Assembly: GCA_963706445.1 (NCBI GenBank)
Contig: OY970160.1
Coordinates: 1,408,001 to 1,472,000 of the forward strand
Origin: an uncultured Nitrososphaerales archaeon
Lineage (GTDB): Archaea > Thermoproteota > Nitrososphaeria > Nitrososphaerales > Gagatemarchaeaceae
Reading direction: 5' to 3'
Length of the DNA: 64,000 bases
Each line of letters starts with the position of its first letter. Position 1 is the first letter of the stretch. Position numbers and translations under genes: made by a program. Below, piece by piece: positions 28,668 to 52,827 of this stretch. Below the pieces are notes generated by a model, which saw nothing but the letters and a program-made list of their open reading frames with translations, did no database searches and was not told where the DNA came from.

Positions 28668-29681
28668 CTACGCCAGCGACTTGACCACGTATTCGATGTT
28701 GCCACTGAGTGGAAGGAGTAGTGGGGACTTGCACCCGGCGGCCATGTACTCCTCGATCTTGGCTCTGCACTCTTGAGGCGTCCCCGACGCGGTGAGCATG
28801 CGGACGATCTCGTCTGGCACGATCTTCGTCGCTCTCTCGATGCCCCCTGGCTTGGCTGGCCACCCGCCCATCTCCTTCTGGACGGCGGCAATCAGGTCCT
28901 CGGCCACCCCACTCGCCCTCATGATGTGCGGCTGCTGCCCCAGGGTCATGGTTACATGGCTCTTGGCAAGCTTCACGGCCTTGTCGGAATCCTCGTCCAT
29001 CGAGCATGCGATGAGTTGAGGGGAATCAATCTTGTCGGGGTCCCTTCCAGCCTTCTGAGCCCCGCGCCTGATGCTCTCCCAGGCCTTCTTGTTGTATTCC
29101 GGAGATACGAGGTAGTTCAGCAGGACGCCGTCGGCTATCTCGCCTGCGAGCTCGAGCATCTGGAATCCAGTCCCGCCGATGTATATGGGGACAGCTCTCG
29201 GACCCGCCCCAGTCCCGTGCAGGGTGTCGAGGCTCACGCCGTCCATCTTGACGAACTCCCCCTGGAAGGTGACCTCTTCGGCGTTGAACAGTCGTTTGAT
29301 TACCTGTACGTACTCTCTCATGCACAGTAGGGGCTTGGTCCTGTCTATCCCCACCTTCTTCGCGAGTGGGTCCCACCATGCCCCGAGACCCAGGATGGCC
29401 CTCCCCGCTGAGAGCTCGTCGAGGGTGGCCCAGGTCTGGGCGATTAGGGCGGCGTTCCTAGTCCAGGTGTTTATGACGCCGGCCCCCACCTTGATCCTCT
29501 TTGTGTCCGTCGCGATGGCGGTTACGGGGACGACTGCGTCCCTTGCCAGCCTCGACTCTGCAATCCAGACAGAATCGAACCCATGGTCTTCCGCCACCTG
29601 TGAGAACCTGACCATCTCCCGGACGTGCATGTCCTGGAGGTACAGTCCCAGCCTGCTCAACGAGCCTGGAGCTTTGGACAA
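28668..29681 (-). CDS. LLM-class (luciferase-like, Mer-like, probably F420-dependent) oxidoreductase
   Basis: GFDSVWIAE, GVINTWTRN, ATLDELSAGRAILGLG, PIYIGGTG..MLELAGEIADG. Confidence 0.88.
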   Translation of the reverse strand: MSKAPGSLSRLGLYLQDMHVREMVRFSQVAEDHGFDSVWIAESRLARDAVVPVTAIATDTKRIKVGAGVINTWTRNAALIAQTWATLDELSAGRAILGLGAWWDPLAKKVGIDRTKPLLCMREYVQVIKRLFNAEEVTFQGEFVKMDGVSLDTLHGTGAGPRAVPIYIGGTGFQMLELAGEIADGVLLNYLVSPEYNKKAWESIRRGAQKAGRDPDKIDSPQLIACSMDEDSDKAVKLAKSHVTMTLGQQPHIMRASGVAEDLIAAVQKEMGGWPAKPGGIERATKIVPDEIVRMLTASGTPQECRAKIEEYMAAGCKSPLLLPLSGNIEYVVKSLA

Positions 29682-36650: not shown

Positions 36651-37676
36651 CTACTTTGCCGTGCCCGCCAGGAGGGCCAGCACCGCCGCCCTGATGTAGA
36701 GGAGGTTCTCCGCCTGGTCGTAGATGACGCTCCGGGGGCCGTCCATGACCTCGTCGTCCGCCTCCTGACCCCTGAAGACCGGGAGGACGTGAGTGACCAC
36801 CCCTCCCTTGCTCATGGTGTCGGCCAGTTTCTTTGTCAGGCGCCAGTCCTTGTGCCTGTTGTGCAGCTCCACCTCTTTCTCCTTGGTGAACCTGTTCATC
36901 CCCGTCATGACGCAGTCGTGGCTGGCCCAGCTCCTTGGGAAGACGACGTCGGCGCCTTTCATCGCCTCTTCGGGGCTGTGGCTGATCTCGAGGCTCCCCC
37001 CTGCGGCTTTGGCGTTGCTCCGGGCCTGCTGGACGAGCTTGTCGTCGAGGTCGAATCCTTCTGGATACGCGAGGACGGTGTCCATGCCGTACTTTGTCGA
37101 AATGAGCATCTCGTCCTGCATGCTCCCCCAGCTCCTGATGTGGTCGCTGTAGGTCCACAGGAGTGCGTACTTCTTCTTCTGAAGGTTCCCCCCGAGCTTC
37201 TCTTTGAGGGTGAGCATGTCTGTTATTGCCTGAGTGGGGTGATAGACGTCGTCGGCCATGTTCACCACCGGAATGTCAGCGTACTTCGCGTACTCCCTGA
37301 TCGCGGCGTTGCCCCTGCCGTAGACGTAGTCGACGGCGGACTCGAGGATCCTCACGCCGAGAGCGTGCCCCATCCGCTCGTACATCTTCGCCATGTCCTT
37401 GATTGACTCCCCCTCGGAGCCCCTCGTGGTCGCGAAGTCGATGAACTGCGAATGTCCCCCGAGAATCGTGGAGGCGGCTTCGAAGCTCGACCGAGTCCTG
37501 GTGGAGGTGTTGTAGAAGAGCATGAAGAAGGTCCTGTTCTTGAAGAGCTCTGGAACGCCGCCGGCCTTGTACTTCCGCTTTATGTCGGTCGCGAAATCCA
37601 TCAGGTAATCGATTTCGTCTCTGGTCCACTCCTGCGTCGATATGAGGTCCTTTCCGCGAAGGTCTTGGGGTCGCAT
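36651..37676 (-). CDS. transcarbamylase (OTC superfamily, YgeW/AOTCase-like) no. 1
   Basis: STRT, HPTQ, FPRSW, HVLP, QAEN. Lacks the DxxxSMG ornithine-binding loop. Confidence 0.88.
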   Translation of the reverse strand: MRPQDLRGKDLISTQEWTRDEIDYLMDFATDIKRKYKAGGVPELFKNRTFFMLFYNTSTRTRSSFEAASTILGGHSQFIDFATTRGSEGESIKDMAKMYERMGHALGVRILESAVDYVYGRGNAAIREYAKYADIPVVNMADDVYHPTQAITDMLTLKEKLGGNLQKKKYALLWTYSDHIRSWGSMQDEMLISTKYGMDTVLAYPEGFDLDDKLVQQARSNAKAAGGSLEISHSPEEAMKGADVVFPRSWASHDCVMTGMNRFTKEKEVELHNRHKDWRLTKKLADTMSKGGVVTHVLPVFRGQEADDEVMDGPRSVIYDQAENLLYIRAAVLALLAGTAK

Positions 37677-37700
37677 GATGGCGGGCCGACGTTTTTCCGC

Positions 37701-38195
37701 TTATGAACGTATCAGCCGGTGCGCGAGGGCGACCCCCAGAGCGGTCCTGAGCGCTGCGATCTGCTGCTGGTAGCCGGTGCACCTGCAGAGGTTCCCGGAC
37801 ATCAGCCGCCTGATCTCCGCATCCGAAGCCCCCGGGACGTGCTCGAGGATCCACGACAGGGTGACTATCATCCCTGGAATGCAGTAGCCGCACTGCACGG
37901 CGTCGTGCTCCACGAACGCGCGCTGGACCGGGTTCGGGTCAGACGTCTTCCCCAGCCCTTCCACCGTGACCACTTCGCGCCCGTCTATCTGGGGAGCTAG
38001 GACAAGACAGGAGGTGACAGGCATCCCGTCCAAGAGGACTGTGCAGGCACCGCACTCGCCGGTGTCGCACCCCTTCTTCACCCCCGTCGTCCCCGCGACA
38101 TCATGCAGGTAGTCGCAGAGGGTCTGGTTCGGTTCGATCTCGTCGTTTCTCTTCGCGCCGTTGAGCTTGAAGCTCAACCTCAACCTGCCCTTCAA
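37701..38195 (-). CDS. Xdh/Cox-family 2Fe-2S small subunit
   Basis: GCDTGECGACTV..SC, QCGYC, NLCRCTGY. Confidence 0.95.
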   Translation of the reverse strand: MKGRLRLSFKLNGAKRNDEIEPNQTLCDYLHDVAGTTGVKKGCDTGECGACTVLLDGMPVTSCLVLAPQIDGREVVTVEGLGKTSDPNPVQRAFVEHDAVQCGYCIPGMIVTLSWILEHVPGASDAEIRRLMSGNLCRCTGYQQQIAALRTALGVALAHRLIRS

Positions 38196-39085
38196 CGGGT
38201 CCTATCCTCCGAGAGCAACTGGATGATGAGCCTCCTGGTCAGCACGTGGACGAGGCGCTTTCGGTAACGCGCGCTGGCCCTGATGTCGGATATCGGCTTC
38301 GCATCTTCTCCGGCGAGAGCAGCTACCTTCTCTGCTTGCTCAGCGTTCGCTTCGCTCCCTGCCATCGCCCCCGACGCGGTCTCGGCCAGAATGGGGGTGG
38401 GGGCCACGGCGCCAAGCGCGACCCTGCCGGCCCCGAACCTTCCGTCGTGGAGGGTGGCCACGACAGCCACGGAGACCGCGGAGAGCACGTTCTCGTTCCT
38501 CACGGCGGCCCTAGTCCAGACGCTCCGGACCTCCTCGATGGCGGGGATCTCCACCGATGAGATGATCTCGCCGACCTGGAGGGAGTTCCTTTTCGGACCG
38601 GTGAAAATGCTCTGGACCGGCAGAGTCCTCTTCCCCGACCTGCTGAGAATGGTGACGTCTGCGCCCAGCGCAATAAGCGGAGGAGCGGAGTCGGCCGCAG
38701 GGGACGCCGTCGCGAGGTTGCCTCCCAGGGTCGCTATGGTCCTGATCTGGAGGGTCCCTACGTTCGCCGACGCTTCACGAAGAGCGTTGGCGTACCTTCG
38801 CACCAGGGGGCTTTCCTCGATCTCCGAGAAAGTGGCCAAGGCGCCGATGCACAGGACTCCATTGCCGACGCTGATTCCTCCAATATCGCTCCTGAGGTGG
38901 CGCAGGTCGATCACCACCTTGGGTGCTACAGTCCGCTCCTTGAGCGCGACGGTGAGATCGGTGCCTCCGGCTATGATCGCCGCGTCCTTGCCGTGAACCG
39001 CGAGAACCTCGAACACCTCGGAGAGGGTCGTCGGGGCAAGATACTCGAACCGAGGGATGGGAGCCAGGTACTGGAATGATTTCAA
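38192..39085 (-). CDS. Xdh/Cox-family FAD-binding subunit
   Basis: AGGTDL, QIRTIATLGGNL, ASPAADS, PISDIRASARYR. Confidence 0.95.
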   Translation of the reverse strand: MKSFQYLAPIPRFEYLAPTTLSEVFEVLAVHGKDAAIIAGGTDLTVALKERTVAPKVVIDLRHLRSDIGGISVGNGVLCIGALATFSEIEESPLVRRYANALREASANVGTLQIRTIATLGGNLATASPAADSAPPLIALGADVTILSRSGKRTLPVQSIFTGPKRNSLQVGEIISSVEIPAIEEVRSVWTRAAVRNENVLSAVSVAVVATLHDGRFGAGRVALGAVAPTPILAETASGAMAGSEANAEQAEKVAALAGEDAKPISDIRASARYRKRLVHVLTRRLIIQLLSEDRTR

Positions 39086-41373
39086 GTCCGGCCGGACCTC
39101 TCATCAATCGCTTCAGATACCCTTTCGGGCGTGAAGGGGAATCGGCGGATGGGGAACCCAAGTGCGTTGTATATTGCGTTCCCGACCGCGCCTGCCACGG
39201 GCTCAATCCCCGCTTCGCCGACCCCCTTGGCGCCGAACGGCCCGAACTCGTCCGGCGCTTCGACGATTATGGTCTTGATCGTCGGCACGTCTGCCGCCGT
39301 GGGGATGTGGTAGTCCAGGAACGTCTTGTTCCTGATCACCCCGTCTTTCAGAATCAGTTCCTCCATGAGGGCGTAGCCAAGACCCTGCGCCACTCCCCCG
39401 ATAATCTGGCTCTCGTATTGCTCCCGCACCACGACGGTCCCGGAATCGTGCGCGGCGATATAGTTGATGACGTCCACCTTGCCGAGCTCTGTGTCCACCT
39501 CCACCTCCGCCACGTGGACTCCGAACGCGTATGAGGGCGCCAGGTCGCCGTGGCCGGCACTCATGTCCCAGAGGGGAAGGGGCTTGAACACCTTCCCTTC
39601 CTCCTTGAGGCTCATCCTCCGTCTTTGGCACTCCGCCACGAGCTCGGCGAACCCGACCCGCTCGTTCTTGTGCCCCAGGCGAACGGCCGAGTCTTCTTCG
39701 AAGGAGATCTCCTCGGCTGGGCACGACAGCATGTCAGAGGCGACCAGCGAGAGCTTTTGCCTGAGCTTCTCTGCCGCCAGGAGTATCGCCTTGCCCCCGA
39801 ACACAGTGCTCCTGGAGGCCACCGTTGGACCTGAATCTGGGACGAGGTCGGTGTCCGGCAGGATGACCTCAGCCCTGTCCGGTCTGGTCCCCAGAACCCG
39901 GGAGACTATGCTCACGAAGCCGGTGTGGATCCCCTGCCCGTACTCGGTCAGGCTCGATTTGACCAGCACACGGCCTTCTTCCGTTATCTCAACAGACGCC
40001 GTGGCGGCGTCAGCTTCGCCGTTCAGACCCTCGGGGTGGATGGTGCATGCCATGCCGATCCCGCGCCTCTTCGTCCCCGTCCCTGGCCCAGCCCTCCGTT
40101 TCGATTCCCACCCCGAAGCTTCACTGGCCTTGATGATGCACTCCTCCAAGCCTACTCCTCCTGGAAGAATCTGTCCCGTCGGCGTGATCGCCCCTTCCCT
40201 GAGGACGTTGAGGAGCCTGAACTCAACCGGGTCTATCCCGATGGATTCCGCCGCCTCGTCCATCTGTAGCTCCGCCGCGAACGACGCCTGAGGCTTACCG
40301 AACCCCCTGAAGGCTCCGGTGGGCACGTTGTTGGTGTACGCCACCTCTCCCTCGACGTGCACGTTCGGCACGACATAGGGGCCGGCTGCCACGATGACCG
40401 CGACGAAGAGGACCCGCTCGCTAAGGGAGGCGTAGGCGCCCCCGTCTCCGAGTATCCGGGCCCTGACTGCAATTATCTTCCCATTGGATGTCACTCCCAT
40501 CTCCCGTTCGAATGTCATCGGGTGACGCTTAGGATGGAACGCGGCCGACTCTTTCCTTGAGAATGCCAAAAGTGCAGGCCTCTTGGTAAGCCAGGCCCCA
40601 AGCGCGGCCATGGCGCAGACTTCGTCTGGGGCGTCCTGCTTCGCTCCGAACCCGCCCCCGGTGGGCGCCTGTATGATGCGGACGTTCGGGGCCGCACCCC
40701 CCATGACGGTGGACACCGCCTTCTTGACCATGAATGGGTTCTGCATCGAGCCGAGGACGACGACGCCGTCCTTCTTTGGGTAGGCGAGCGCAGCTTCGGT
40801 CTCCAGGTACGCGTGCTCCTGGACTGGAGTCCTGTAGACCCCCCTTACCACCGAGTCTGCTTTCGCAAGTCCCTTCGGGGCGTCTCCGAAGTTCACAAGG
40901 TGCCTCGCGGTGAGGTTCCCTGAGACATGAATGGCGGGGGCGCCCGGTCGCAGCGCCTCCTCTGGGGTGAAGACGGCTGGGAGCTGTTCGTAGTCCACCC
41001 TGACCGCCTGGACGCCAAGTTCGGCGGACTCCGGCGTGTCAGCGACGACGAGCGCCACCGAATCTCCGACGAATCTCACCTTGTCGGGGCAGAGCAGCGG
41101 CCTGTCCTGGACGACGTAACCGATGTAGTTGGACCCAGGAACGGACCTGGCCGTCGCGACCTTCACGACCCCCTGGACTCGTTCTGCAGCGGAGACGTCG
41201 ATGCGTCTAATCAGGGCGTGAGGGTGTGGGGACCTGACAACACGGACGTAGAGGGCATCCTCATGGATGTTGTCCGTCGTGTACTTGGTTTCGCCCGTCG
41301 CTTTCTCGAGGGCGTCGATCCTCGTCACCCCCTTGGAGCGGAGGAGGGACTCTTCGAGCCTCTGCTCGGTCAT
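39082..41373 (-). CDS. Xdh-family molybdopterin-binding large subunit no. 1
   Basis: QEHAYLE, GGGFGAK, AFRGFG, EYGQG, TVASRS, AKGVGE. Confidence 0.95.
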   Translation of the reverse strand: MTEQRLEESLLRSKGVTRIDALEKATGETKYTTDNIHEDALYVRVVRSPHPHALIRRIDVSAAERVQGVVKVATARSVPGSNYIGYVVQDRPLLCPDKVRFVGDSVALVVADTPESAELGVQAVRVDYEQLPAVFTPEEALRPGAPAIHVSGNLTARHLVNFGDAPKGLAKADSVVRGVYRTPVQEHAYLETEAALAYPKKDGVVVLGSMQNPFMVKKAVSTVMGGAAPNVRIIQAPTGGGFGAKQDAPDEVCAMAALGAWLTKRPALLAFSRKESAAFHPKRHPMTFEREMGVTSNGKIIAVRARILGDGGAYASLSERVLFVAVIVAAGPYVVPNVHVEGEVAYTNNVPTGAFRGFGKPQASFAAELQMDEAAESIGIDPVEFRLLNVLREGAITPTGQILPGGVGLEECIIKASEASGWESKRRAGPGTGTKRRGIGMACTIHPEGLNGEADAATASVEITEEGRVLVKSSLTEYGQGIHTGFVSIVSRVLGTRPDRAEVILPDTDLVPDSGPTVASRSTVFGGKAILLAAEKLRQKLSLVASDMLSCPAEEISFEEDSAVRLGHKNERVGFAELVAECQRRRMSLKEEGKVFKPLPLWDMSAGHGDLAPSYAFGVHVAEVEVDTELGKVDVINYIAAHDSGTVVVREQYESQIIGGVAQGLGYALMEELILKDGVIRNKTFLDYHIPTAADVPTIKTIIVEAPDEFGPFGAKGVGEAGIEPVAGAVGNAIYNALGFPIRRFPFTPERVSEAIDERSGRT

Positions 41374-41435
41374 TTCTGATGAGAAGAGCCGGCGGGGCTT
41401 TAAATCCTATATGTCAGATCGGCGTCTTGCAGCCA

Positions 41436-42689
41436 TCACCGGTGCTGGGTCCGGCTTGGGTTTTTTCCGTCACCCCGGCCTTTTCCCTCGAACATCTCGA
41501 TGACTCTGTCGGGCTCCTTGAGCCCGGAGCCTGTCACGAATACCGCCACCGTGTCGTCTTTGGCGATGTCCCCATCGGATAGCATCCGTTCCAGTCCGGC
41601 AAGCCCAGCGGCCCCCGAGGGTTCGGCGAAGACCCCTTCGTAGGCGGCGAGCTCGCTGACCGCCCCGAGTATCTCACTGTCGCTCACTGAAACTCCGGCC
41701 CCCCCTGTCTTCCTCACCCCCGTCATGGCCGCATCTCCGTCCCACGGATACGGGTCCAGAAGGCCCCCCGCCACCGACGCCGGGTATGGTTCGGGGACGA
41801 GTTTGTCCAGACTGACGCCGTCCTGAATCGCCTTGACCAGAGCCTGGTTTCCGGAGGGTTGGACGGCGACGATCCTCGGGTAGGACTTGATCAGGTCGAG
41901 CTCCTTGAAATCGCGGAGGCCCTTCCAGATGCCGGTGAGCAGGCAGCCGGACCCCGTCGGGACGAAGACCGCGTCCAGTCCCTTCCATTCCATCTGCTCG
42001 TAGAGCTCGTAGGCCATGGTCTTCGGCCCTTCCACCTGATATGGGTTGAATGGCCCGAAGCTTGGGCAGGGGTAGTACCCGAACTTGTCGACGGCGGCGA
42101 GCATCGCCTGGACCGTGGCGTCCTCCCCCTCCTTCTCCTGTTCACATCTGGTTATCGTGGCTCCGTAGAGGAGGAGCTGGGCGATCTTGCCAGCGGCCGC
42201 GTCGGGGGGGACGAAAGCGTGGCACTTCATCCCTGCTCCTGCTGAGTAGGCGGCGAGGGAGGCGGCAGCGTTGCCGCTGGACGCGATTGCGACGTCTGTC
42301 TTCTTCAGCTCGATGGCCTTCGCCGAACCCACGGCCATGGCCCGGTCCTTGAAGGACGCAGTGGGGTTCCTTGTATCGTCCTTCAGGAAGAGGTTCTTCA
42401 TCCCGAGCCTCTCGCCTAGCCGACGGGAGTGGATCAGCGGGGTCCCCCCCTCCCCCAATCTGACGGCGAAACCGGAGGAGACGGGGAGGAGCTCTTCATA
42501 TCTCCAGATGTCCCTGGAGGTACGTTCAGCCAGTGTCCTGCGACCGAGCCTGTCCGACACCGCGTCGTAGTCGTAGACGACGTCGAGTCTCCCCAGGTCC
42601 CTGTTGCGGCACATCACCTGGTTCTCGCTGGGCTTGTATTTCGTCCCGCACTTCGAGCAGACCAGTCTTTCTACGAAGGACAAGAGCAC
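41436..42689 (-). CDS. threonine synthase-like PLP enzyme (fold type II)
   Basis: N-terminal CSKC, LGEGGTPL, NPTASFKDR, ASSGNAA, PTGSG, AEPSGA, TGSGLK. Confidence 0.85.
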   Translation of the reverse strand: MLLSFVERLVCSKCGTKYKPSENQVMCRNRDLGRLDVVYDYDAVSDRLGRRTLAERTSRDIWRYEELLPVSSGFAVRLGEGGTPLIHSRRLGERLGMKNLFLKDDTRNPTASFKDRAMAVGSAKAIELKKTDVAIASSGNAAASLAAYSAGAGMKCHAFVPPDAAAGKIAQLLLYGATITRCEQEKEGEDATVQAMLAAVDKFGYYPCPSFGPFNPYQVEGPKTMAYELYEQMEWKGLDAVFVPTGSGCLLTGIWKGLRDFKELDLIKSYPRIVAVQPSGNQALVKAIQDGVSLDKLVPEPYPASVAGGLLDPYPWDGDAAMTGVRKTGGAGVSVSDSEILGAVSELAAYEGVFAEPSGAAGLAGLERMLSDGDIAKDDTVAVFVTGSGLKEPDRVIEMFEGKGRGDGKNPSRTQHR

Positions 42690-42705
42690 CGGATCCGGAT
42701 CGCGC

Positions 42706-43737
42706 CTACTCTACTATGTCGAAGCCCTTCTGGTACTTCGCGAGCTGCTCCATGGTGTAAGGGTCGAGCTGCTTGCTAGTGCGAGTTACGACCTGCTTCT
42801 TCTTTATCCCGAACACCTCGGTGGAGAGGTACCTTCCTCCGGAGTCGTTGATTACAGTCGCGATCCTTCCAAGCTCCGGGTGCGTCTTTGACAGCTTCAC
42901 GGCAGCCACAACATTGCATCCTGAGGAGATCCCACAGAAGATCCCTTCCGCCCTCGCCAGCCGCTTGGTCATTTCGATGGCTTCGTCTGAGGTCGTGGTG
43001 ACAACGCCGGTCAGGAGGCTGAGGTCGAGGTTCATTGGCACGAAACCGTCGCCGATTCCCTCTATCTTGTGGGTCCCCCACTTGGCGTGGGCGAGTATCG
43101 GCGCCTCCGATGGCTCGACGGCGTAGAGCTTCACCTTCGGGTTCTTCTCCCGAAGATACCTGCCGATCCCGGAAAGGACTCCGCCGGTCCCCTGGGATGC
43201 TACAAAGGCGTCGACCTTGCCACCCATCTGGCTCCACAGCTCGGGCCCCGTGGCCTTGTAGTGCGCCATGGGGTTGTCAGGGTTTGAGAACTGCGAAGGG
43301 ACCCAGTACTTCCCTCTGCTCTTCTTGAGGATCTCCTCGATCTTGTCCAGGCAGAGGTCAACGTCGCTCTCGGCCCCGGGAGTGAGGATGAGCTCCCCGC
43401 CGAACGCCTTGATCATCTTCTTCCGCTCGTCGCTCATCCCTTCGGGCATGACGATGGTCACCTTGTATCCCATCCTGGTGCCGATGAAGGCGCAGGCGAT
43501 CCCCGCGTTCCCTGTCGAGGCCTCAAGGATCTCCATCCCGGGCTTGAGGTCTCCCCGGTTGATGGCCCCCAGTATCATCTCCTTGTAGATCCGGTCTTTC
43601 AGGCTCTCTGTGGGGTTGAACGCCTCCAGTTTAGCGAAGACCTCCGCCTTGATCTTCTCCTCGGCAGGGATTTTCGAGAGGCGGACGGTGGGGGTGTCCC
43701 CTATGATGTCCAGTATGGAGTTATCCTTTCCGAGCAA
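42706..43737 (-). CDS. cysteine synthase-like PLP enzyme (divergent)
   Basis: IGDTPTV, KLEAFNPTESLKDR, ASTGNAG, QFSN, SQGTGG, IEGIG, GISSG, DSGGRYLST. SD GGAGG precedes the TTG. Confidence 0.88.
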   Translation of the reverse strand: MLGKDNSILDIIGDTPTVRLSKIPAEEKIKAEVFAKLEAFNPTESLKDRIYKEMILGAINRGDLKPGMEILEASTGNAGIACAFIGTRMGYKVTIVMPEGMSDERKKMIKAFGGELILTPGAESDVDLCLDKIEEILKKSRGKYWVPSQFSNPDNPMAHYKATGPELWSQMGGKVDAFVASQGTGGVLSGIGRYLREKNPKVKLYAVEPSEAPILAHAKWGTHKIEGIGDGFVPMNLDLSLLTGVVTTTSDEAIEMTKRLARAEGIFCGISSGCNVVAAVKLSKTHPELGRIATVINDSGGRYLSTEVFGIKKKQVVTRTSKQLDPYTMEQLAKYQKGFDIVE

Positions 43738-43752
43738 CGATGTCTCCTCCGA

Positions 43753-44829
43753 CTATCTCCCGCGTTTGGAGCCCATGACCATGGCCATGACCGCCTTCTG
43801 GACGTGCAGCCTGTTCTCCGCCTGCTCGAAGTAGAGGGAGTACTTCGGGCTGTCGATGACCTCGTCGGTGGCCTCCTGTCCTCTGTCCGCAGGACCGCAG
43901 TGCATGTACTTCCCCCTGTTGGTCAGGTCCATCATCTCCTGGGTGCACTTCCAGTCGGTGAACTTGTTCTGGTACTCCGACGCCGCGTCCTTGTTCACGG
44001 TCTTGCTGTATGGGGGGACGAACCCCTTTGGAGACCAGGCCTTGGGGTAGACGAAGTCTGCCCCTTCGAACGCCTCCTTCATGTCGTTCGAGACCTTGAA
44101 GCTCCCGCCGTACCTGTCGGCGTTCTCCTCGCACGCCTTGATGACGTTGTCTTCGAGCTCGAACCCCTTCGGGTGGGCTAGGACGACGTCCATGCCGAAC
44201 TGGGTGCCGATCAGGACACAGCTCTGCGGGACCGCGAGGGGCTTCAGCCCTCCCGAGTAGGCGTAGGAGACGACGAACTTCTTCTTCTTCGGTCTTGGCG
44301 CGACATCGACAATGGCCTTCATGTCTGCCAGAGCCTGAAACGGGTGGTAGATGTCGTCCTCCATGTTGAGGACCGGGATGTCGGCCCATTTGGCGAACTC
44401 CTGGATTATCCTGTGACCCCTACCGATTATCCACTTGGCGGCGTCCCCGTAGCACCTGATCGCTATCGAGTCCCCGTACCTGGAAAGCACCCTGCCTACG
44501 TCTGCTATGGCCTCTGTCTGGTATGGGACCATGTCCTCTGGGAGGGACGGGGTATACACGTCGCTGGGGCTCAGGAAGTGCGCGTGGCCACCAAGCTGAT
44601 AGATCCCGGCTTCAAATGAATTCCTTGTCCTGAGGGACCTGTTGTAGAACATCATGAACAGGGTGTTCCCGGGGAGATAGGGGGTGTTGGCCCTCTTTCG
44701 GAACTTCACCTTGAGGTCCTCGGCCGCCTTGAGGATCCCGGCTATCTTCTCCTGAGGATAGTCGTTCGTGTTCAGGAAGTCTTTGCCCGCCATTGAACCG
44801 ACATAGGATGGTGCTTTCATGACAGGCAT
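43753..44829 (-). CDS. transcarbamylase (YgeW-like) no. 2
   Basis: SLRT, HPFQ, YAYS..LKPLAVPQ (YgeW has WAYS..KPLSVPQ), VYPKAW, HCGPAD, QAENR. Confidence 0.88.
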   Translation of the reverse strand: MPVMKAPSYVGSMAGKDFLNTNDYPQEKIAGILKAAEDLKVKFRKRANTPYLPGNTLFMMFYNRSLRTRNSFEAGIYQLGGHAHFLSPSDVYTPSLPEDMVPYQTEAIADVGRVLSRYGDSIAIRCYGDAAKWIIGRGHRIIQEFAKWADIPVLNMEDDIYHPFQALADMKAIVDVAPRPKKKKFVVSYAYSGGLKPLAVPQSCVLIGTQFGMDVVLAHPKGFELEDNVIKACEENADRYGGSFKVSNDMKEAFEGADFVYPKAWSPKGFVPPYSKTVNKDAASEYQNKFTDWKCTQEMMDLTNRGKYMHCGPADRGQEATDEVIDSPKYSLYFEQAENRLHVQKAVMAMVMGSKRGR

Positions 44830-44874: not shown

Positions 44875-45759
44875 TTGTCGTCTGTCGAGCTCTACTCACC
44901 CACTGACCTCGCAGACGCACTCAGGTTCATCGAGCACAAGGGAGAGGAAGTCGCGGTGATCGCCAGCGGGACGGACCTAATCCCGCGGATGCGGAAGAGG
45001 CAGGTCTCGCCGTCGGTGCTTCTTGACATATCGTCGTTCCAGAGCGACCTAAGGTATGTCCGCCAGTCGGACGGAGGAGTTAGCCTGGGGGCGCTGACCA
45101 CCCTCACCGACGTTTTGGAATCGTCCCTTTTCAACGGAAAGCTTTCGGTCATTCACGAAGCGGCTGAGATATTCGGCGCCCCCCAGGTCCGCAACGTCGC
45201 CACGGTCGGGGGGAACGTCTGCTCCGCTGCGTCTTCCGAAGACCTGATCCCTGTCCTCATGGCCCTCGGCGCCCGGCTCAAGGTCATAAGCTCCGGAGGG
45301 GAGCGCACGGTCCCCATCAAAGATTTCGTCGTAGGGAAGCGCGAGACGGCGTTGAAGCCGTCGGAGATCCTGGCTGAGGTCCGCTTCGACTATCCGAAGG
45401 GGAAGTACTGGACGGGGTTCGAGAAGCTCGGGCGCAGGAACATGCTCATCATCTCTCTTGTCAGCATGGCCATGCGCCTGACCCTGGAAGACGACCTGAG
45501 CACGGTCCGTTCGGCGAGCATCGCCCTCAACAGAGTGTCGGGGAGGGTCCCGGCCCTGGCGTCGAAGACGGAAGAGTTCCTAGTGGGGAGCAAGCTCTCC
45601 GAGAAGACGATCGTGGAAGCCCAGAAGGTTCTGGCCACGGAGCTGGCTCTGACGAGCGACTTCCGGAGCTCGGCGGCTTACCGCATGGAGATCGCCCAGG
45701 TCTATCTGAAGAGGCTGCTGCTCAGATGCTCCGAGAGGATCAGGAGAGAGACAGAATGA
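44875..45759 (+). CDS. Xdh/Cox-family FAD-binding subunit
   Basis: ASGTDL, QVRNVATVGGN, SDFRSSAAYR. Confidence 0.93.
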   Translation: MSSVELYSPTDLADALRFIEHKGEEVAVIASGTDLIPRMRKRQVSPSVLLDISSFQSDLRYVRQSDGGVSLGALTTLTDVLESSLFNGKLSVIHEAAEIFGAPQVRNVATVGGNVCSAASSEDLIPVLMALGARLKVISSGGERTVPIKDFVVGKRETALKPSEILAEVRFDYPKGKYWTGFEKLGRRNMLIISLVSMAMRLTLEDDLSTVRSASIALNRVSGRVPALASKTEEFLVGSKLSEKTIVEAQKVLATELALTSDFRSSAAYRMEIAQVYLKRLLLRCSERIRRETE

Positions 45760-46229
45760 CGAGAAGGGTGATCTCGCTGAACGTCAACGGAGCCGAGCGG
45801 TCGGTGCAGGTCGGCCCCCTGGAGAGACTGATCGATGTGCTAAGGGATGAATTGTGGTTGAAGTCGGTGAAGGAGGGGTGCAGTACGGGCGACTGCGGAA
45901 TCTGCGCCGTCATGGTGGACGGGAAGTTGGTGAATAGCTGTCTTATGCTCGCAGCCCAGTGCGATGGAAGAAGGGTGCTGACCCTTGAAGGGCTGCAGAA
46001 CGACCTGACCATGAAGAGGCTGCAGGGGAGCTTCATCGCCAACAACGCCGCCCAGTGCGGCTTCTGCACCCCGGCGATGCTGATGGCATCCTGGGACCTG
46101 GCCAGGCACTCGTCGAAGCCGTCGACCGAGGAGGTCAAGGTGGCCATGAGTGGGATACTCTGCAGGTGCACGGGGTACTATCAGATCATAGATTCGGTCA
46201 AGCAGGGGTGCAGGGAGGAGAGGCGTTGA
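45756..46229 (+). CDS. Xdh/Cox-family 2Fe-2S small subunit
   Basis: GCSTGDCGIC..SC, QCGFC, LCRCTGY. ATGA overlap with the upstream gene. Confidence 0.95.
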   Translation: MTRRVISLNVNGAERSVQVGPLERLIDVLRDELWLKSVKEGCSTGDCGICAVMVDGKLVNSCLMLAAQCDGRRVLTLEGLQNDLTMKRLQGSFIANNAAQCGFCTPAMLMASWDLARHSSKPSTEEVKVAMSGILCRCTGYYQIIDSVKQGCREERR

Positions 46230-48571
46230 GCGAGCAGGTCTCTCAGCTTCTCGACTCGCTCAGGGAGAAGGCGGCGAAGGGGGAGCTCCTATACATAGGG
46301 GAGAACATAGCCAGGGTCGACTCCCTGGAGAAGGTCCTGGGGAAGCCGGTCTACACCGCCGACCTCATCCCCAAGGGGACCCTGTACGCGAAACTCTTCC
46401 ACTCCTCGGTGCCCCATGGGACGATCAGGGCGATGGAGCTGGGCGCCGCGAAGGCCTACCCGGGGGTCCTTGGGGTGCTGACCTGGAGGGACATCCCTGG
46501 GCTCAACCAGTCCTCGGCCGTGCTCCCTGACAGGCAGCTCTTCGCCGAGCCGGTGGTGCGTTCGACGGCAGACATTCTGGGGGCTGTAGTTGCGGAGACG
46601 TTACCTGCGGCCACGGAGGCGGCGTCGAGGGTCAGGGTCGAGTACACCCCGATCCCTGCCAACTACGACCCGATGGAAGCGCTGAGGCCGGACGCCTACA
46701 AGATCCATCCGAAGGGGAACATAGCGAGGCAGATGAAAATCAGGAAGGGGAACGTCGAAGACGGGTTTGCGAAGTCAGATGTGATCATCGAGAAGACGTA
46801 CAAGACGCAGTTCCAGGACGCGACCCCCCTGGAGCCAGAGGTGGGGCTCGCCATCCCCGAGGACGGCGGGGTCAAGGTCATAGGCTCGATGCAGAGCCCT
46901 CATCACACTCAGGCTGCGGTCGCCAAGGTCATCGGCCTCCCCCCGGAGAAGGTGCACGTTATACAGGCCATCACCGGGGGAGCCTTCGGGCCGAAGTCGG
47001 ACGAGACGCCCTTCGACGTGTGTTCCACGGCAGCCCTCGCGGCGATGAAGTACAGGCGTCCGGTCTTCTGCGGCCTGGACAGGGAGGACTCCATGGTCAT
47101 GCACACCAAGAGGCACCCCTTCGTCATCAGCCACAAGACAGGGGTGACGTCTGATGGGATGCTGGTGGCCGATGAGTCCATGATAGTCGGAGACACCGGA
47201 GCCTATGCGTCCCTGGGGGTGTTCGTGATCGTGCGTGCGACGTTCCACACGGTGGGGGCCTACGAAGTCCCCAACGTAAAGGCGGACTCCTACCTCGTCT
47301 ACACCAACAACACCTACACTGGGAGCCTGAGGGGGTTCGGAGGGCCCCAGGCGCTGTTCGCCATTGAGAGCCAGATGGAGGAGCTGGCCCGCAAGCTCGG
47401 GATGGACCCGCTGGAGTTCAGGCTGAGGAACATGCTGGTCCCCGGGAAGAAGAACGCTACTTCGGCGGTCATGGACGCCAGCTGCGGACTCCCCGAGTGC
47501 GTCGAGAAGGTGGTAGCATCGAGCAACTATTGGGAGAAGGCAGCGAGGTACCGCGATCAGACGGGGAGCGTCAGGCGGGGGCTGGGCATCGCGCTTCTGA
47601 TGCACGGCAACTCGCTCGGACCAGAGGGGAACGACTACGGGGCGGTCCACATGGAAATCGAATCTGACGGGACAGTGTCGGTCGGGACAGGGCTCACCGA
47701 ATACGGGACTGGTGCGATCTCCGGGCTGATGCAGGTCGCTTCCAGCATACTGGGGGTGCCGCTGACAAGGTTCAAGCTCGAGCGTCCGGACACCACCAAG
47801 CACAGGGAGAGCGGCCCGACCGTCGCGTCCAGAGTGGTCGTGATAGGTGGGAACGCCGCCATGAAAGCTGCCGAGAAGCTGAAGGGCACCCTGATGCCCC
47901 TTGCGGCGCAGATGCTGAAAGCAAGCCCCGGGGACGTGGCGTTGGTAGACGGGGTCGCCTTCGACCGACAGAATCCATCCGCGACCCTGGCCTGGAATGA
48001 CCTCGTCGCGGAAGCGTACAGGAGGGGGCTGAACCTGAAGGAGGAGGGGTTCTACATGGCTCCGGCGGCGCCATGGGACACGGAGTCGGGCCAGGGGACC
48101 CCCTACGTGCAGTACACCTGGGGAGCCCTGATTGCGGAGGTGGAGGTGGACACAGAAACTGGCTACTACAAAGTGGTGGGGGTCCACACTGCCTACGACG
48201 TCGGCAAGGCGGTCAACCCCGCTGGCGTCCTGGGCCAGATATACGGCGGCACCGTGCAGGGGCTCGGTTACGCCATGATGGAGGAGCTCATCCACAAGGA
48301 CGGGTTCGTGGTGAACCCCAACCTGGGGGACTACTACATCCCCACGTCGATGGACATCCCTGCAGAGTTCAAGGCGTTCATAGTGGAGGTGCCCGGCCCG
48401 CTGGGACCCTTCGGTGCCAAAATAATCGCCGAGCCCCCCATCGTCCTCCCTGGACCTGCGATCCGGAACGCCGTGCTCAACGCGACAGGCGTCTCCGTGG
48501 ACGAGCTGCCGGTGACCTCCGAAAAGGTCCTGATGGGGTCCAAGGCAAGGCCGTCACCATTGGCGGTTTAG
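46226..48571 (+). CDS. Xdh-family molybdopterin-binding large subunit no. 2 (atypical motifs)
   Basis: GGAFGPK, SLRGFGGPQ, EYGTG, TVASR, AKIIAEPP. TTGA overlap start at 46226. Confidence 0.93.
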   Translation: MSEQVSQLLDSLREKAAKGELLYIGENIARVDSLEKVLGKPVYTADLIPKGTLYAKLFHSSVPHGTIRAMELGAAKAYPGVLGVLTWRDIPGLNQSSAVLPDRQLFAEPVVRSTADILGAVVAETLPAATEAASRVRVEYTPIPANYDPMEALRPDAYKIHPKGNIARQMKIRKGNVEDGFAKSDVIIEKTYKTQFQDATPLEPEVGLAIPEDGGVKVIGSMQSPHHTQAAVAKVIGLPPEKVHVIQAITGGAFGPKSDETPFDVCSTAALAAMKYRRPVFCGLDREDSMVMHTKRHPFVISHKTGVTSDGMLVADESMIVGDTGAYASLGVFVIVRATFHTVGAYEVPNVKADSYLVYTNNTYTGSLRGFGGPQALFAIESQMEELARKLGMDPLEFRLRNMLVPGKKNATSAVMDASCGLPECVEKVVASSNYWEKAARYRDQTGSVRRGLGIALLMHGNSLGPEGNDYGAVHMEIESDGTVSVGTGLTEYGTGAISGLMQVASSILGVPLTRFKLERPDTTKHRESGPTVASRVVVIGGNAAMKAAEKLKGTLMPLAAQMLKASPGDVALVDGVAFDRQNPSATLAWNDLVAEAYRRGLNLKEEGFYMAPAAPWDTESGQGTPYVQYTWGALIAEVEVDTETGYYKVVGVHTAYDVGKAVNPAGVLGQIYGGTVQGLGYAMMEELIHKDGFVVNPNLGDYYIPTSMDIPAEFKAFIVEVPGPLGPFGAKIIAEPPIVLPGPAIRNAVLNATGVSVDELPVTSEKVLMGSKARPSPLAV

Positions 48572-48608: not shown

Positions 48609-50378
48609 TTATGAAGCGAAGGGCGGGACGAACTTCTGTCCGTCTACGTCGAACATCCCCTTGTCTGTTATCCTGGCGTGAGGGATCACGGAGAGGGGGA
48701 GCAGGTTCGGGAGGGGCATGTAGGGGTGGTCGAGGACTCCCATCCTCCTGAAAGCGCCGCGCAGCCGGACGACCTCCTTTGAGACCCTCGTGACGCTGTG
48801 CTCTGAAATCAGGCCGGCGATCGGGAGCTCCACTAGGGCCAGGGTCTTGAGGTCGAGGACAGCCGCGATGCCTCCGCGGCTCTTAATCACCAGGTTCGCC
48901 GCTGCCCGCATGTCTTCCACGTCCGTCCCCACCACGAGGAGGTTGTGGGAATCGTGGGCTACGGTCGTCGCCATGGCTCCCCGGCGGATAAGATTCCTGA
49001 CGAAGCCGAAGGACCTCCCGCCGTTCCTCCCGTGCCTCTCGAAGACGAAGACTAGTGCGACTTCGCCCAGAGACAGCTTCCCCTTTCTGACCCGCACCTT
49101 CGCTCTGTTCAGTTTGGTCAGGATCATTCTTGCGAAGGCTTCTCCCTTGTCTTCGCGCTTCCCGAAGCCGCTGAAATCTATGGTGTTGACGTCGACAACG
49201 CCGTCGCTAACGGGGGGCCGGACCTCGAAGTCCTTCAGGCTCAGGGGGTTCAGTTTCATCGTCTCTTTGGTCGCAGGATCAAACTCCCTGTCCCCGAGGC
49301 TGACGAGCATCCTCCCGTTTCTCGCGACCAGCGCCCCGTTCGCCACGACGGCCTTGACGTTGAACTTCTTCACGTCGTCGAGGAGGACTATGTCGGCGAC
49401 TTTGCCTGGGGAGATGGAGCCGATGTCGTACCTCCTCATGTGAAGGGCAGGCCTCAGGGTCACGCTCCTCACCGCCTCCACCGGGTCCATGCCAGCCTGG
49501 ATGAACGACCTGCAGACATAGTCGAGATGCCCGAACCTCGTGAGGTTATCGGGGAGGACGTCGTCGGTGCATAGGATCAGGTTGTACGGGTGCGGGATGC
49601 CACGGAGCGCTTTGACGAACTTCCTCGGTTCTAGGATGTAGGGCCCCCTCAGCTTGACGTACAGCCCCAGCCTCAGCTTCTCCAGCATGGCCTCCACGGT
49701 GAAGTTCTCGTGGTCTGCTTCGGCCCCGGACGCGACGTATGCGTTGAGTTCGAGCCCCGTGAGGAGTGGAGCATGGCCGTCCACGACCGCCCCGTGCTCT
49801 TCGCCGACCTGGAGTATCCTCATCATCTTCTCGCCCCCGTTCAGCACCGCTGTGTAGTCCATCACCTCACCAAGGCCCCACACGCCCTTCCAGCCGAGCA
49901 TCTCCTCGATGTCGCCGGGGGTGAGCTCAGCACCGGCGGTCACCGCATCCGACTCGGGGACGCAGGTCGGGGCGAAATAGAACTGCTTCTGAGGGAGTCC
50001 CCGGCTGTCTTTGATCATCGCCTTCACCCCCTCCTTTCCCATTACGTTCGCGATTTCATGAGGGTCGGCGAAAGCCGTCGTAAGGCCGTGCGGGAGGGTG
50101 GCCGCGGCGAACTTCGAGGGAGTCACCATGCTGCTCTCGATGTGTAGGTGAGAGTCGATGAGCCCGGGAACCGCGACCTTGCCTCTGCCATCTATCGAGC
50201 GGGCGGCGGGGGGGCATCCCGAAGGGTTGCCTACGTAGACGATTCTGTCCCTGTATACCCCGATCGATGCGTCCTGCATCTCGCCTGTGAAGACGTTGAA
50301 CAGGGTCGTGTTGCGGATGGCGAGCGTTAGCTCTTTCTTTCCTAACGCGGCAGAGATGTAATCGATACGGGCCGACAT
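48609..50378 (-). CDS. ade: adenine deaminase (AdeC type)
   Basis: PGLIDSHLHIESS, DPHEIANV, GEVM, DGHAP, DHE, CTDD, ERHG, VAHDSHN. Confidence 0.95.
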   Translation of the reverse strand: MSARIDYISAALGKKELTLAIRNTTLFNVFTGEMQDASIGVYRDRIVYVGNPSGCPPAARSIDGRGKVAVPGLIDSHLHIESSMVTPSKFAAATLPHGLTTAFADPHEIANVMGKEGVKAMIKDSRGLPQKQFYFAPTCVPESDAVTAGAELTPGDIEEMLGWKGVWGLGEVMDYTAVLNGGEKMMRILQVGEEHGAVVDGHAPLLTGLELNAYVASGAEADHENFTVEAMLEKLRLGLYVKLRGPYILEPRKFVKALRGIPHPYNLILCTDDVLPDNLTRFGHLDYVCRSFIQAGMDPVEAVRSVTLRPALHMRRYDIGSISPGKVADIVLLDDVKKFNVKAVVANGALVARNGRMLVSLGDREFDPATKETMKLNPLSLKDFEVRPPVSDGVVDVNTIDFSGFGKREDKGEAFARMILTKLNRAKVRVRKGKLSLGEVALVFVFERHGRNGGRSFGFVRNLIRRGAMATTVAHDSHNLLVVGTDVEDMRAAANLVIKSRGGIAAVLDLKTLALVELPIAGLISEHSVTRVSKEVVRLRGAFRRMGVLDHPYMPLPNLLPLSVIPHARITDKGMFDVDGQKFVPPFAS

Positions 50379-51501: not shown

Positions 51502-52827
51502 ATGAAGTACGTGGAAGGCTCGAAGAGAGTCTTTCTCAGTACTGGGACGCGGTTCCCACGAGAGGTTATCTGGGCAGTTGGTGCAATAAAATTCGCGGCG
51601 GCGAAGTCTAACGTTCAGCTCGGACTACTGGACAGGGAAGTCGGGAAAGCGATACAGGCGAAGGCAAAGGAGTTGATGAGGGGTAAGCTTGATTCTCTGG
51701 TCGAAGTGGACGTCTTTCAGACCGGATCCGGCACCGGCCTGAACATGAACGCCAACGAGATTCTAGCAGAGCTAGCATCGAAGGAACTGGGGAAGAAGGT
51801 CCATCCCAACGATCATGTCAACATGAGCCAGTCGTCCAACGATGTGGGGCCGACTGCAATCCGGGTCGCGGCGGCCATGGCTGTGAGCAGGGACCTGGTC
51901 CCAGCGCTCGAGGGAATGAGCAAGAGTTTGAACGCGCTGTCGAGGAAGACTTCGACGGTATACAAGTCAGGTAGGACGCACCTGCGGGATGCGCTCCCGG
52001 TCACCATGGGGCAGGAATTTGGAGCCTATGCGGATGAGTTTACGAGAGATGCTGAACTCGTGGAGAAGACGATGGAGTATCTGCTTGACCTGCCGATCGG
52101 AGGGACGGCGGTCGGGACCGGGCTGAACGCGGACCCGAAGTTCGGAGGGATGGTGGCGAAGGAAGTAGCAGGACTCTCCGGGCTGAAGTTCAGGAGTGCG
52201 AAGAACAAGTTCAGGCCGACGAGGCTCCTGACCGACATGTCCTCCCTCAGCGGCACCATGAGGTCCGTGAGCATCGACCTCTACAGGCTTTGTCAAGACC
52301 TCAGGCTGATGTTCTCAGGACCGCGGACGGGCCTCGGAGAGATAGACATCCCTACCCAGGAGGAGGTTGCAGGGAGCAGCATCATGCCGGGGAAGACGAA
52401 CCCGGTGACTGTCGAGAGCGCGCTGCTCGCCTCCGCGGAAGTGATAGGGCTCGATGGGGCGAACGCCTTCGCGGCATCCCTCGGAGAATTCGAGCTCACC
52501 ATGGGCGTGCCTTTGATGGGATACAATATGGTGCTGCAGGCCAAGCTCTTGTCAGAGGCTCTCCGGAAGCTCTCCTCGCTGGTCATCGATCATGTCGTCC
52601 CCAACAGGCCCAGAGCAAGGGAGTATGCGGAGACAAGCCCTGCGCTCATCACTTTGGTCGCCCCCAAGATAGGATATGACAAGGCCACCCTGTTGGGGAA
52701 GCACATGGCCAAGGGGCTGTCGATCAGGACCGCCCTGAAGAAGCTGGGATTCAGCCAGACCGAGATTGACGACGTGCTCAACCTGGCCCATCTTGTCGAG
52801 CCCGGGATACCCGCGAAGAAGCTGTAG
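51502..52827 (+). CDS. fumC: class II fumarate hydratase / aspartase-family lyase
   Basis: FQTGSGT, HPNDHVNMSQSSND, GRTHLRDA, GGTAVGTG, GSSIMPGKTNP. Confidence 0.9.
   Translation: MKYVEGSKRVFLSTGTRFPREVIWAVGAIKFAAAKSNVQLGLLDREVGKAIQAKAKELMRGKLDSLVEVDVFQTGSGTGLNMNANEILAELASKELGKKVHPNDHVNMSQSSNDVGPTAIRVAAAMAVSRDLVPALEGMSKSLNALSRKTSTVYKSGRTHLRDALPVTMGQEFGAYADEFTRDAELVEKTMEYLLDLPIGGTAVGTGLNADPKFGGMVAKEVAGLSGLKFRSAKNKFRPTRLLTDMSSLSGTMRSVSIDLYRLCQDLRLMFSGPRTGLGEIDIPTQEEVAGSSIMPGKTNPVTVESALLASAEVIGLDGANAFAASLGEFELTMGVPLMGYNMVLQAKLLSEALRKLSSLVIDHVVPNRPRAREYAETSPALITLVAPKIGYDKATLLGKHMAKGLSIRTALKKLGFSQTEIDDVLNLAHLVEPGIPAKKL

Follow-up and report, generated by a model that had tools for sequence, protein, structure and literature searches.

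Two distinct transcarbamylases and a carbamate kinase in an archaeal purine-breakdown island: a possible variant of the reductive uric-acid pathway

The reductive urate pathway of Escherichia coli and Clostridium sporogenes consists of XdhD-YgfM, YgfK, SsnA, HyuA, YgeW, YqeA, YgeY as well as YgeX. According to two papers published in 2025, YgeW releases one ureido group from 2,3-diureidopropionate by phosphorolysis, which yields ATP via YqeA, YgeY hydrolyses the other ureido group, and YgeX completes the route to pyruvate; the two papers disagree over which ureido group leaves first. Variants of the pathway are known, in which YgfK is replaced by UacX or by a putative F420 enzyme (predicted for Chloroflexota), or in which YgeW is replaced by the hydrolase UacY. 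YgeY is retained in both characterised clusters, those of E. coli and Clostridioides difficile. In our literature searches, no paper described the pathway in archaea or with two transcarbamylases, and searches on archaeal purine degradation and carbamate kinase likewise returned nothing relevant.

In the present study, we analysed a 64,000-nucleotide stretch of DNA (the window) from an uncultured Nitrososphaerales archaeon of peat soil (contig OY970160.1, positions 1408001-1472000), which carries genes for two transcarbamylases, named CTaseA and CTaseB here. The genome is 1.82 Mb in size, lies on one contig and is 95% complete. A sequence-only reading of the window had proposed that the two paralogues may remove both ureido groups as carbamoyl phosphate, and the YgeW and YgeY chemistry from which it started agrees with the 2025 papers. 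Our analysis supports the proposal in part. We propose an archaeal version of the reductive (2,8-dioxopurine) uric-acid pathway in which two ureido groups are phosphorolysed, with the two genes encoding the end of the route that yields carbamoyl phosphate. We assign this reading a probability of about 0.5; the substrates and the yield of two ATP are inferred from the gene context.

Both genes were found on the minus strand where the sequence-only reading had placed them. CTaseA (P0001, no. 2 of that reading) occupies 43753-44829 and encodes 358 aa, and CTaseB (P0002, its no. 1) occupies 36651-37676 and encodes 341 aa. Both proteins belonged to the Asp/Orn carbamoyltransferase superfamily, since the OTCace_N and OTCace domains scored 121 and 124 bits in CTaseA and 128 and 112 bits in CTaseB (Pfam cut-offs of about 29-30). 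CTaseA carried the motifs SLRTR, HPFQ, VVSYAYSGGLKPLAVPQ, YPKAW and HCGP, with a loop that includes KPLAVPQ, and CTaseB carried STRTR, HPTQ, WTYSDHIRSWGSMQ, FPRSW and HVLP. Thus the carbamoyl-phosphate motifs SxRT, HPxQ and HxLP were present in both, with Gly in place of Leu in the HCGP of CTaseA. The motifs quoted by the sequence-only reading were all there: HCGP and HVLP stood instead of HCLP, and the DxxxSMG ornithine loop was absent from both proteins.

To compare the paralogues with YgeW, we aligned them with the E. coli K-12 protein. The second-substrate loop of YgeW (WAYSPSYGKPLSVPQ, including KPLSVPQ) and its YPKSW motif were matched by CTaseA only (KPLAVPQ and YPKAW), which bears out the likeness that had been noted for this paralogue. 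At the same positions, CTaseB has IRSWGSMQ and FPRSW. These features were highly conserved. HCGP, KPLAVPQ and YPKAW were invariant across 40 CTaseA homologues, and H-V-x-P and F-x-R-x-W were invariant across 42 CTaseB homologues, of which at least 90% had the Pro of FPRSW. The loops read from the sequences differed as well. CTaseA has a proline-rich loop and an extended 120's loop; CTaseB has a long 120's loop, a short 80's loop and no prolines at the position of the proline-rich loop.

Both paralogues scored below the curated NCBIfam cut-offs. CTaseA and CTaseB scored 263 and 225 bits against the N-acetylornithine transcarbamylase (AOTCase) model NF003384 (cut-off 288), and 223 and 207 bits against the ornithine carbamoyltransferase (OTC) model TIGR00658 (cut-off 281). 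With the YgeW models NF005538 and TIGR03316 (cut-offs 453 and 500), the scores were 147 and 143 bits for CTaseA and 153 and 146 bits for CTaseB, and the YgeW-only insertions and tails were missing from both (358 and 341 aa vs 396 aa in YgeW). The two paralogues shared 36% identity with each other, and 30% (CTaseA) and 32% (CTaseB) with YgeW. Among solved structures, the best match by sequence for CTaseA was Xanthomonas AOTCase (PDB 3kzc and related entries), and for CTaseB it was Pyrococcus furiosus OTC, followed by Xanthomonas AOTCase. The AlphaFold2 model of CTaseB had a predicted local distance difference test score (pLDDT) of 89.8, and a fold search fitted the knotted AOTCase and the unknotted P. 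furiosus OTC about equally well. The ESM Atlas label was "ornithine carbamoyltransferase family" and nothing finer.

The genome encodes five transcarbamylases, namely ArgF, PyrB, CTaseA, CTaseB and a third non-OTC paralogue, CT3. The canonical ArgF has both SMG and HCLP and adjoins a gene for a LysK-type deacetylase, and arginine is made via ArgF and LysK in this genome. A plain OTC or AOTCase identity, which the sequence-only reading had regarded as fatal to its proposal, was ruled out for both window paralogues by the curated cut-offs, the motifs and the separate ArgF. CT3 (HCLP, YAKSW) lies at genome position 1678645-1679724 (L019:14645-15724), 230 kb from the window pair. It passed the AOTCase model (305 bits vs 288), was the best match to YgeW in the genome (36%), and shared 45% identity with CTaseA and 43% with CTaseB. 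It is flanked by two ornithine-cyclodeaminase/mu-crystallin genes, and FAA hydrolase, aldehyde dehydrogenase and ABC transporter genes lie nearby.

To place the two paralogues, we collected 80 genomic loci with a CTaseA homologue from five archaeal lineages, mapped the window proteins onto them, clustered all open reading frames (ORFs) without regard to labels and scored neighbours within 10 kb. Homologues of both paralogues were archaeal and strongly conserved. The best 120 matches to CTaseA showed 73-91% identity, and those with a named source came from Nitrososphaerota, Nezhaarchaeales, Hadarchaeota and Conexivisphaerales archaea and from one metagenome-assembled genome labelled bacterial. 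In a FastTree phylogeny of 149 sequences, the CTaseA clade (n = 78) had a support of 100 and the CTaseB clade (n = 56) a support of 98; ArgF, YgeW and CT3 fell outside both. In 13 further genomes without CTaseB near CTaseA, an off-cluster transcarbamylase belonged to the CTaseB clade. CTaseA and CTaseB are therefore two distinct, well-supported clades.

The same gene families recurred in the neighbourhoods. The commonest neighbour of CTaseA was a ThrC-like enzyme (45 of the 80 loci), followed by CTaseB (42), carbamate kinase beside CTaseA and/or CTaseB (40), an SsnA-type or other amidohydrolase (32), a CysK-like enzyme (28), xanthine dehydrogenase (about 21) and adenine deaminase (18). CTaseB was present in 30 of the 43 loci that have at least 8 kb on each side. 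The two transcarbamylases occur jointly with carbamate kinase and the ThrC-like protein in Nitrososphaerales, Caldarchaeales, Bathyarchaeia and Desulfurococcales, in different arrangements. In Caldarchaeales, the order is CTaseA, CysK-like, a V4R protein, ThrC-like and carbamate kinase, convergent with SsnA-like, a xanthine-dehydrogenase trio and CTaseB. In Bathyarchaeia, an amidohydrolase, CysK-like and ThrC-like genes are followed by CTaseB, divergent from carbamate kinase and CTaseA. In Desulfurococcales, the order is CTaseB, CTaseA, carbamate kinase, SsnA-like, a DHO_dh and 4Fe-4S protein, and ThrC-like. Within the genus of the window, CTaseA was found in 4 of 19 genomes, CTaseB-type matches were confined to those, and CTaseA, CTaseB, CysK-like and ThrC-like were jointly present or absent. 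Synteny over several archaeal classes thus ties CTaseA, CTaseB, carbamate kinase and the purine-ring enzymes together.

Two variations were seen in these loci. The DHO_dh and 4Fe-4S dicluster protein of Desulfurococcales (UacX/PreA type, 402 aa, L079:13711-14919, and in the same position in 7 other loci) stands between the SsnA-like and ThrC-like genes, the place taken in the window by an F420-type LLM enzyme. The small V4R-domain protein lies between the CysK-like and ThrC-like genes at L047:12122-12598 and in 9 other Caldarchaeales loci. Its domain binds small molecules, and the protein may act on the module as a sensor or a regulator.

Since transcarbamylase active sites lie between subunits and the two genes co-occur, CTaseA and CTaseB might assemble into a mixed trimer that has one activity. 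We consider this very improbable. Each protein has the full set of carbamoyl-phosphate-binding motifs, the genes are often divergent, convergent or on separate contigs (Calditenuaceae-like and some Desulfurococcales genomes), and Hadarchaeia carry CTaseA alone.

No M20 peptidase was found in the window, as had been noted; all six matches in the genome lie outside it, and the arginine deiminase family had no match anywhere in the genome. Within this genome, no YgeY orthologue reached the cut-off of 321.5 bits (the top score was 124), and the E. coli YgeY query retrieved only one ArgE/DapE-type protein of 24% identity, far from the island. The same cut-off was passed in none of 51 CTaseA genomes (this one and 50 others), so that a co-conserved ygeY orthologue, named by the sequence-only reading as evidence against itself, was not found. 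No M20 family was among the recurrent neighbours within 10 kb of CTaseA in the 80 loci. For the other steps, YgeX had a best match of 35 bits in this genome (cut-off 532), and an E. coli YgfK query gave no match in it.

The two transcarbamylase genes are the first and last genes of a seven-gene minus-strand operon with intergenic gaps of 16, 16, 62, -4, -4 and 24 bases. CTaseA is followed by genes for two fold-type II pyridoxal phosphate (PLP) enzymes, one CysK-like (P0244, 42706-43737, 343 aa, PALP domain, cysKM subfamily at 355 bits) and one ThrC-like (P0243, 41436-42689, 417 aa, with a Cys-rich N-terminal stretch). A first trio of xanthine-dehydrogenase-family genes, recognised by family profiles, comes next, consisting of the molybdenum subunit (39082-41373), the FAD subunit (38192-39085), which overlaps each neighbouring gene by 4 bases, and the 2Fe-2S subunit (37701-38195). 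CTaseB closes the operon.

The window is a purine-breakdown island, and its other genes lie on both sides of the operon. The carbamate kinase gene (23524-24477, plus strand; TIGR00746 426 bits vs cut-off 358), a single copy in the whole genome and retrieved by E. coli YqeA at 46% identity, heads a run of amidohydrolase and hydantoinase genes. It is followed on the plus strand by the TRZ/ATZ-type amidohydrolase Amh1 (24487-25863), assigned by family match, probably a purine deaminase and present again in Bathyarchaeia and Desulfurococcales next to the two transcarbamylase genes, and by a HyuA-like D-hydantoinase/dihydropyrimidinase (25876-27249; TIGR02033 489 bits vs 393; 40% identity to E. coli HyuA). 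On the minus strand are an SsnA-like ring-opening amidohydrolase (27289-28653), which is 32% identical to E. coli SsnA and had SsnA as its best family (376 bits, short of the 444 required), and an LLM-class F420-type oxidoreductase (28668-29681), which occupies the position of YgfK. The island also holds two further amidohydrolases besides Amh1. Divergent from the CTaseA operon is a second xanthine-dehydrogenase trio (44875-48571, plus strand; FAD subunit 44875-45759, FeS subunit 45726-46229, molybdenum subunit ending at 48571), followed by an adenine deaminase gene on the minus strand (48609-50378; TIGR01178 431 bits vs cut-off 472.5). Just past the latter lies a gene for an aspartase/fumarase-family lyase (51502-52827), with aspartate ammonia-lyase as the best subfamily, below cut-off; at least one related locus, L033, shows this gene in synteny with the island.

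Based on this gene content, the following route can be proposed. The xanthine-dehydrogenase-type enzymes, the F420-type reductase, the SsnA-like hydrolase and the hydantoinase would convert the purine to 2,3-diureidopropionate, as their family matches suggest. CTaseA would carry out the YgeW reaction and phosphorolyse one ureido group of this compound, a proposal made because it shares the proline-rich loop as well as the YPKxW lysine of YgeW. CTaseB, with arginine at the position of that lysine, may then phosphorolyse the leftover ureido group of albizziin or of 3-amino-2-ureidopropionate, and would thereby replace YgeY. The carbamate kinase would turn both carbamoyl phosphates into ATP, or carbamoyl phosphate might be passed to ArgF and PyrB. 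With the CysK-like enzyme as a helper or complement, the ThrC-like one would replace YgeX and convert 2,3-diaminopropionate irreversibly to pyruvate and ammonia. This irreversible deamination could provide the thermodynamic pull on the unfavourable phosphorolyses, a pull that the hydrolysis by YgeY supplies in bacteria. We hold the more specific version of this route tentatively, at a little short of even odds. In it, CTaseB would be a catabolic diaminopropionate-type transcarbamylase and the ThrC-like enzyme a diaminopropionate ammonia-lyase, two ATP would be gained per purine, and the module would also feed carbamoyl phosphate to arginine and pyrimidine synthesis in archaea that lack CarB.

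The two PLP enzymes could in principle be housekeeping proteins placed here by chance. To evaluate this, we compared their scores and distribution. The solved structures closest to the CysK-like protein were cysteine synthases, and O-ureido-L-serine synthase was also among the matches; its orthologues within the genus (84-85% identity) were found solely adjoining CTaseA. The ThrC-like protein scored 176 bits, compared with 300-354 bits for the true ThrC of related families; thrC matches over the cut-off occurred in 5 genus genomes and lay beside CTaseA in 3 of them (G000, which is this genome, G001 and G018). The orthologues restricted to CTaseA neighbourhoods and a score about half that of true ThrC ruled out a chance placement, and the co-distribution of both genes with CTaseA in the genus indicated that both are parts of the module.

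These enzymes also open another route, in which a single carbamoyl phosphate is harvested, the second (beta-)ureido group is eliminated from albizziin by the CysK-like or ThrC-like enzyme or removed by an unrecognised hydrolase, and CTaseB is redundant or has a side role. The minimal conserved pair, CTaseA and ThrC-like in Hadarchaeia, fits this route, and relatives of CysK handle ureido groups, as O-ureido-L-serine synthase does. In addition, UacY of C. difficile is a member of the amidohydrolase superfamily that acts on a ureido group, and the island has three spare amidohydrolases. However, these resemble TRZ/ATZ deaminases and not the D-aminoacylase-type UacY. The genome has no urease for released urea, which weakly disfavours the departure of the second ureido group as urea; its sole "urease" match proved to be the N-terminal domain of an amidohydrolase, and a urease route was rejected. 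Moreover, this explanation leaves a highly conserved second transcarbamylase clade, linked to carbamate kinase across classes, unexplained, and we regard it as unlikely.

Another explanation keeps both transcarbamylases catabolic and feeding carbamate kinase, but gives CTaseB a ureido compound other than the mono-ureido product of CTaseA. The candidates are 3-ureidopropionate (from pyrimidines), ureidomethyl-hydantoin, 5-ureido-dihydrouracil and a ureido-imidazole from a xanthine branch. The gene order agrees with it, in that CTaseB is consistently last, after the xanthine-dehydrogenase trio, and CTaseA sits with the PLP enzymes. A pyrimidine substrate would also suit the hydantoinase, which passes the dihydropyrimidinase model too, and the DHO_dh and 4Fe-4S protein of Desulfurococcales, which is of the PreA (pyrimidine dehydrogenase) type as well. 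A catabolic beta-alanine transcarbamylase has been postulated in the literature, and Hadarchaeia do without CTaseB. On the other hand, only a single DHO_dh gene and a single hydantoinase were found in the genome, which gives no sign of a dedicated pyrimidine reductase. The island is without an aminotransferase for beta-alanine, and CTaseA and CTaseB have been acquired and lost jointly within the genus. We regard a different substrate for CTaseB as rather unlikely.

The direction of the carbamate kinase reaction was considered next to the supply of carbamoyl phosphate. CarB, the large subunit of carbamoyl-phosphate synthetase, was not found in this 95%-complete single-contig genome, despite the presence of ArgF and PyrB, and all four CTaseA genomes of the genus were without it. 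Carbamate kinase was present in 8 of the 9 CarB-less genus members (the exception being the 67%-complete G009), and five of these 8 had neither CTaseA nor CTaseB. These results suggest that carbamoyl phosphate is made by carbamate kinase in CarB-less genomes, as in Thermococcales. The same observations would fit a module that is partly or wholly anabolic, in which carbamate kinase supplies the carbamoyl phosphate that CTaseA and/or CTaseB would transfer to an amine in the biosynthesis of a ureido compound. We judge this improbable, given that the enzymes encoded constantly beside the module (xanthine dehydrogenase, SsnA-like hydrolase, hydantoinase and adenine deaminase) serve degradation, that carbamate kinase is embedded in the CTase module in other phyla, and that YgeW, the closest characterised analogue, is catabolic.

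Several observations weigh against the double phosphorolysis proposed here. No enzyme activity is known for either the CTaseA or the CTaseB clade, and in the CTaseA model the stretch with the carbamoyl-phosphate site and the 80's loop (within residues 64-106) had a pLDDT below 50. The proposal gives no reason why there should be two PLP enzymes, and the carbamate kinase may be partly anabolic, because the genome is without CarB and the kinase occurs in genus members without CTaseA or CTaseB. Possible ureidohydrolases were also found: two ArgE/DapE-type M20 proteins elsewhere in the genome, the three additional amidohydrolases of the island, and a carbamoylputrescine-amidase-like CN-hydrolase at genome position 902139, 500 kb away, whose distribution within the genus was unrelated to the island.

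Two archaeal lineages add to these points. Desulfurococcales have CTaseB together with a YgeY-like M20 protein that scored 211-262 bits, below the cut-off and far above the 158 bits or less of other lineages. It was present in 11 of the 12 Desulfurococcales genomes searched (G064, G067, G069-G071, G074-G077, G079 and G080), mostly on other contigs than the CTase module, and about 13 kb away from it in G077. Therefore, the relation between CTaseB and YgeY is not a clean either/or. In addition, three Hadarchaeia genomes had CTaseA and the ThrC-like enzyme, no M20 and no CTaseB-type match among those listed. Their three transcarbamylase matches per genome were an ArgF-type protein, CTaseA and a weaker one presumed to be PyrB. 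These results indicated that CTaseB is not required everywhere and that the minimal unit is CTaseA with the ThrC-like enzyme.

In Hadarchaeia, the two genes lie beside genes for aldehyde:ferredoxin-oxidoreductase-type enzymes and ferredoxins. At L065:6957-15215, an aldehyde:ferredoxin-oxidoreductase gene (AFOR_N/AFOR_C) and a 4Fe-4S ferredoxin gene lie on each side of CTaseA and ThrC-like, with a SAICAR-synthetase-like gene on one side, and at L064:7922-13249 the same ferredoxin and SAICAR-synthetase-like clusters stand beside CTaseA. Neither xanthine dehydrogenase nor CTaseB was seen at these two loci.

We also searched for the operon in environmental data. Metagenomes from peat and from soil contained its DNA. 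Contigs of at least 99% identity from four metatranscriptome runs on peat covered 6 of the 7 operon genes (CTaseA, CysK-like, ThrC-like, molybdenum subunit, FAD subunit and CTaseB) and spanned two junctions, CTaseA/CysK-like (42873-43899 and 43565-44294) and CysK-like/ThrC-like (42524-42749). These results suggested that the operon is transcribed, although assembled RNA-library contigs are silent on transcript level and strand. Parts of the operon and the second xanthine-dehydrogenase trio had no RNA-library contig in these runs, which is not evidence of silence. The CTaseA start is annotated as the ATG at 44829, and the contigs of all four runs ended at 44807, 22 bases inside the ORF. The next in-frame ATG past 44807 encodes Met13 (MAGKD...); the N-terminal PSYVG is conserved among homologues, and such contigs cannot define transcript ends.

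If the proposed route is correct, two large, highly conserved archaeal transcarbamylase clades, at present misannotated as "ornithine carbamoyltransferase", would gain functions, as would a ThrC-like family of PLP enzymes. The reductive urate pathway described in gut bacteria in 2025 would extend to archaea of soil, peat and hot springs with a doubled substrate-level ATP yield, and purine fermentation would become one more way of gaining energy for Bathyarchaeia, Caldarchaeales and those Nitrososphaerales that do not oxidise ammonia. The paralogues would also bear on which ureido group YgeW-type enzymes attack first.

Individual features of the module can be compared with known transcarbamylases. 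The N-acetylornithine transcarbamylase of Xanthomonas was the best fold match of CTaseB, and its loop lengths are similar to those of CTaseA. However, the cut-off of its curated model was missed by both paralogues and passed by CT3. The 2,3-diaminopropionate transcarbamylase of viomycin and zwittermicin biosynthesis forms albizziin from diaminopropionate and carbamoyl phosphate, the reverse of the reaction proposed for one paralogue. It differs in being anabolic and a member of the unknotted OTC branch. The ureidoglycine transcarbamylase of Rubrobacter xylanophilus (Rxyl_2847) likewise replaces an amidohydrolase of a purine pathway and adjoins a carbamate kinase, but it belongs to the aspartate transcarbamylase branch and acts on allantoate in an oxidative pathway.

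Closer parallels are found in the reductive pathway itself. The C. difficile variant, with its UacX (DHO_dh) and UacY (Amidohydro_3), indicates that the reductase and the first ureido-cleaving steps are interchangeable, and the Desulfurococcales module has a UacX-type protein. In C. difficile, hydrolysis replaces phosphorolysis and less ATP is gained, whereas the archaeal module appears to do the reverse, with a second phosphorolysis in place of hydrolysis. With the pathway of E. coli and C. sporogenes, the archaeal module shares a xanthine-dehydrogenase-family enzyme, an SsnA-type hydrolase, a D-hydantoinase, a transcarbamylase with the YgeW loop and YPKxW, a carbamate kinase and, as proposed here, the gain of ATP from a ureido group. 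It differs in the archaeal host, in the lack of YgeY and YgeX, in the LLM F420-type enzyme that stands for YgfK, and in the addition of CTaseB and the ThrC-like and CysK-like enzymes; identity between CTaseA and YgeW is only 30%, and YgeW is longer by about 40 residues. Judged from the sequences, the archaeal two-transcarbamylase module would be a new variant of the reductive urate pathway, built on two uncharacterised enzyme clades.

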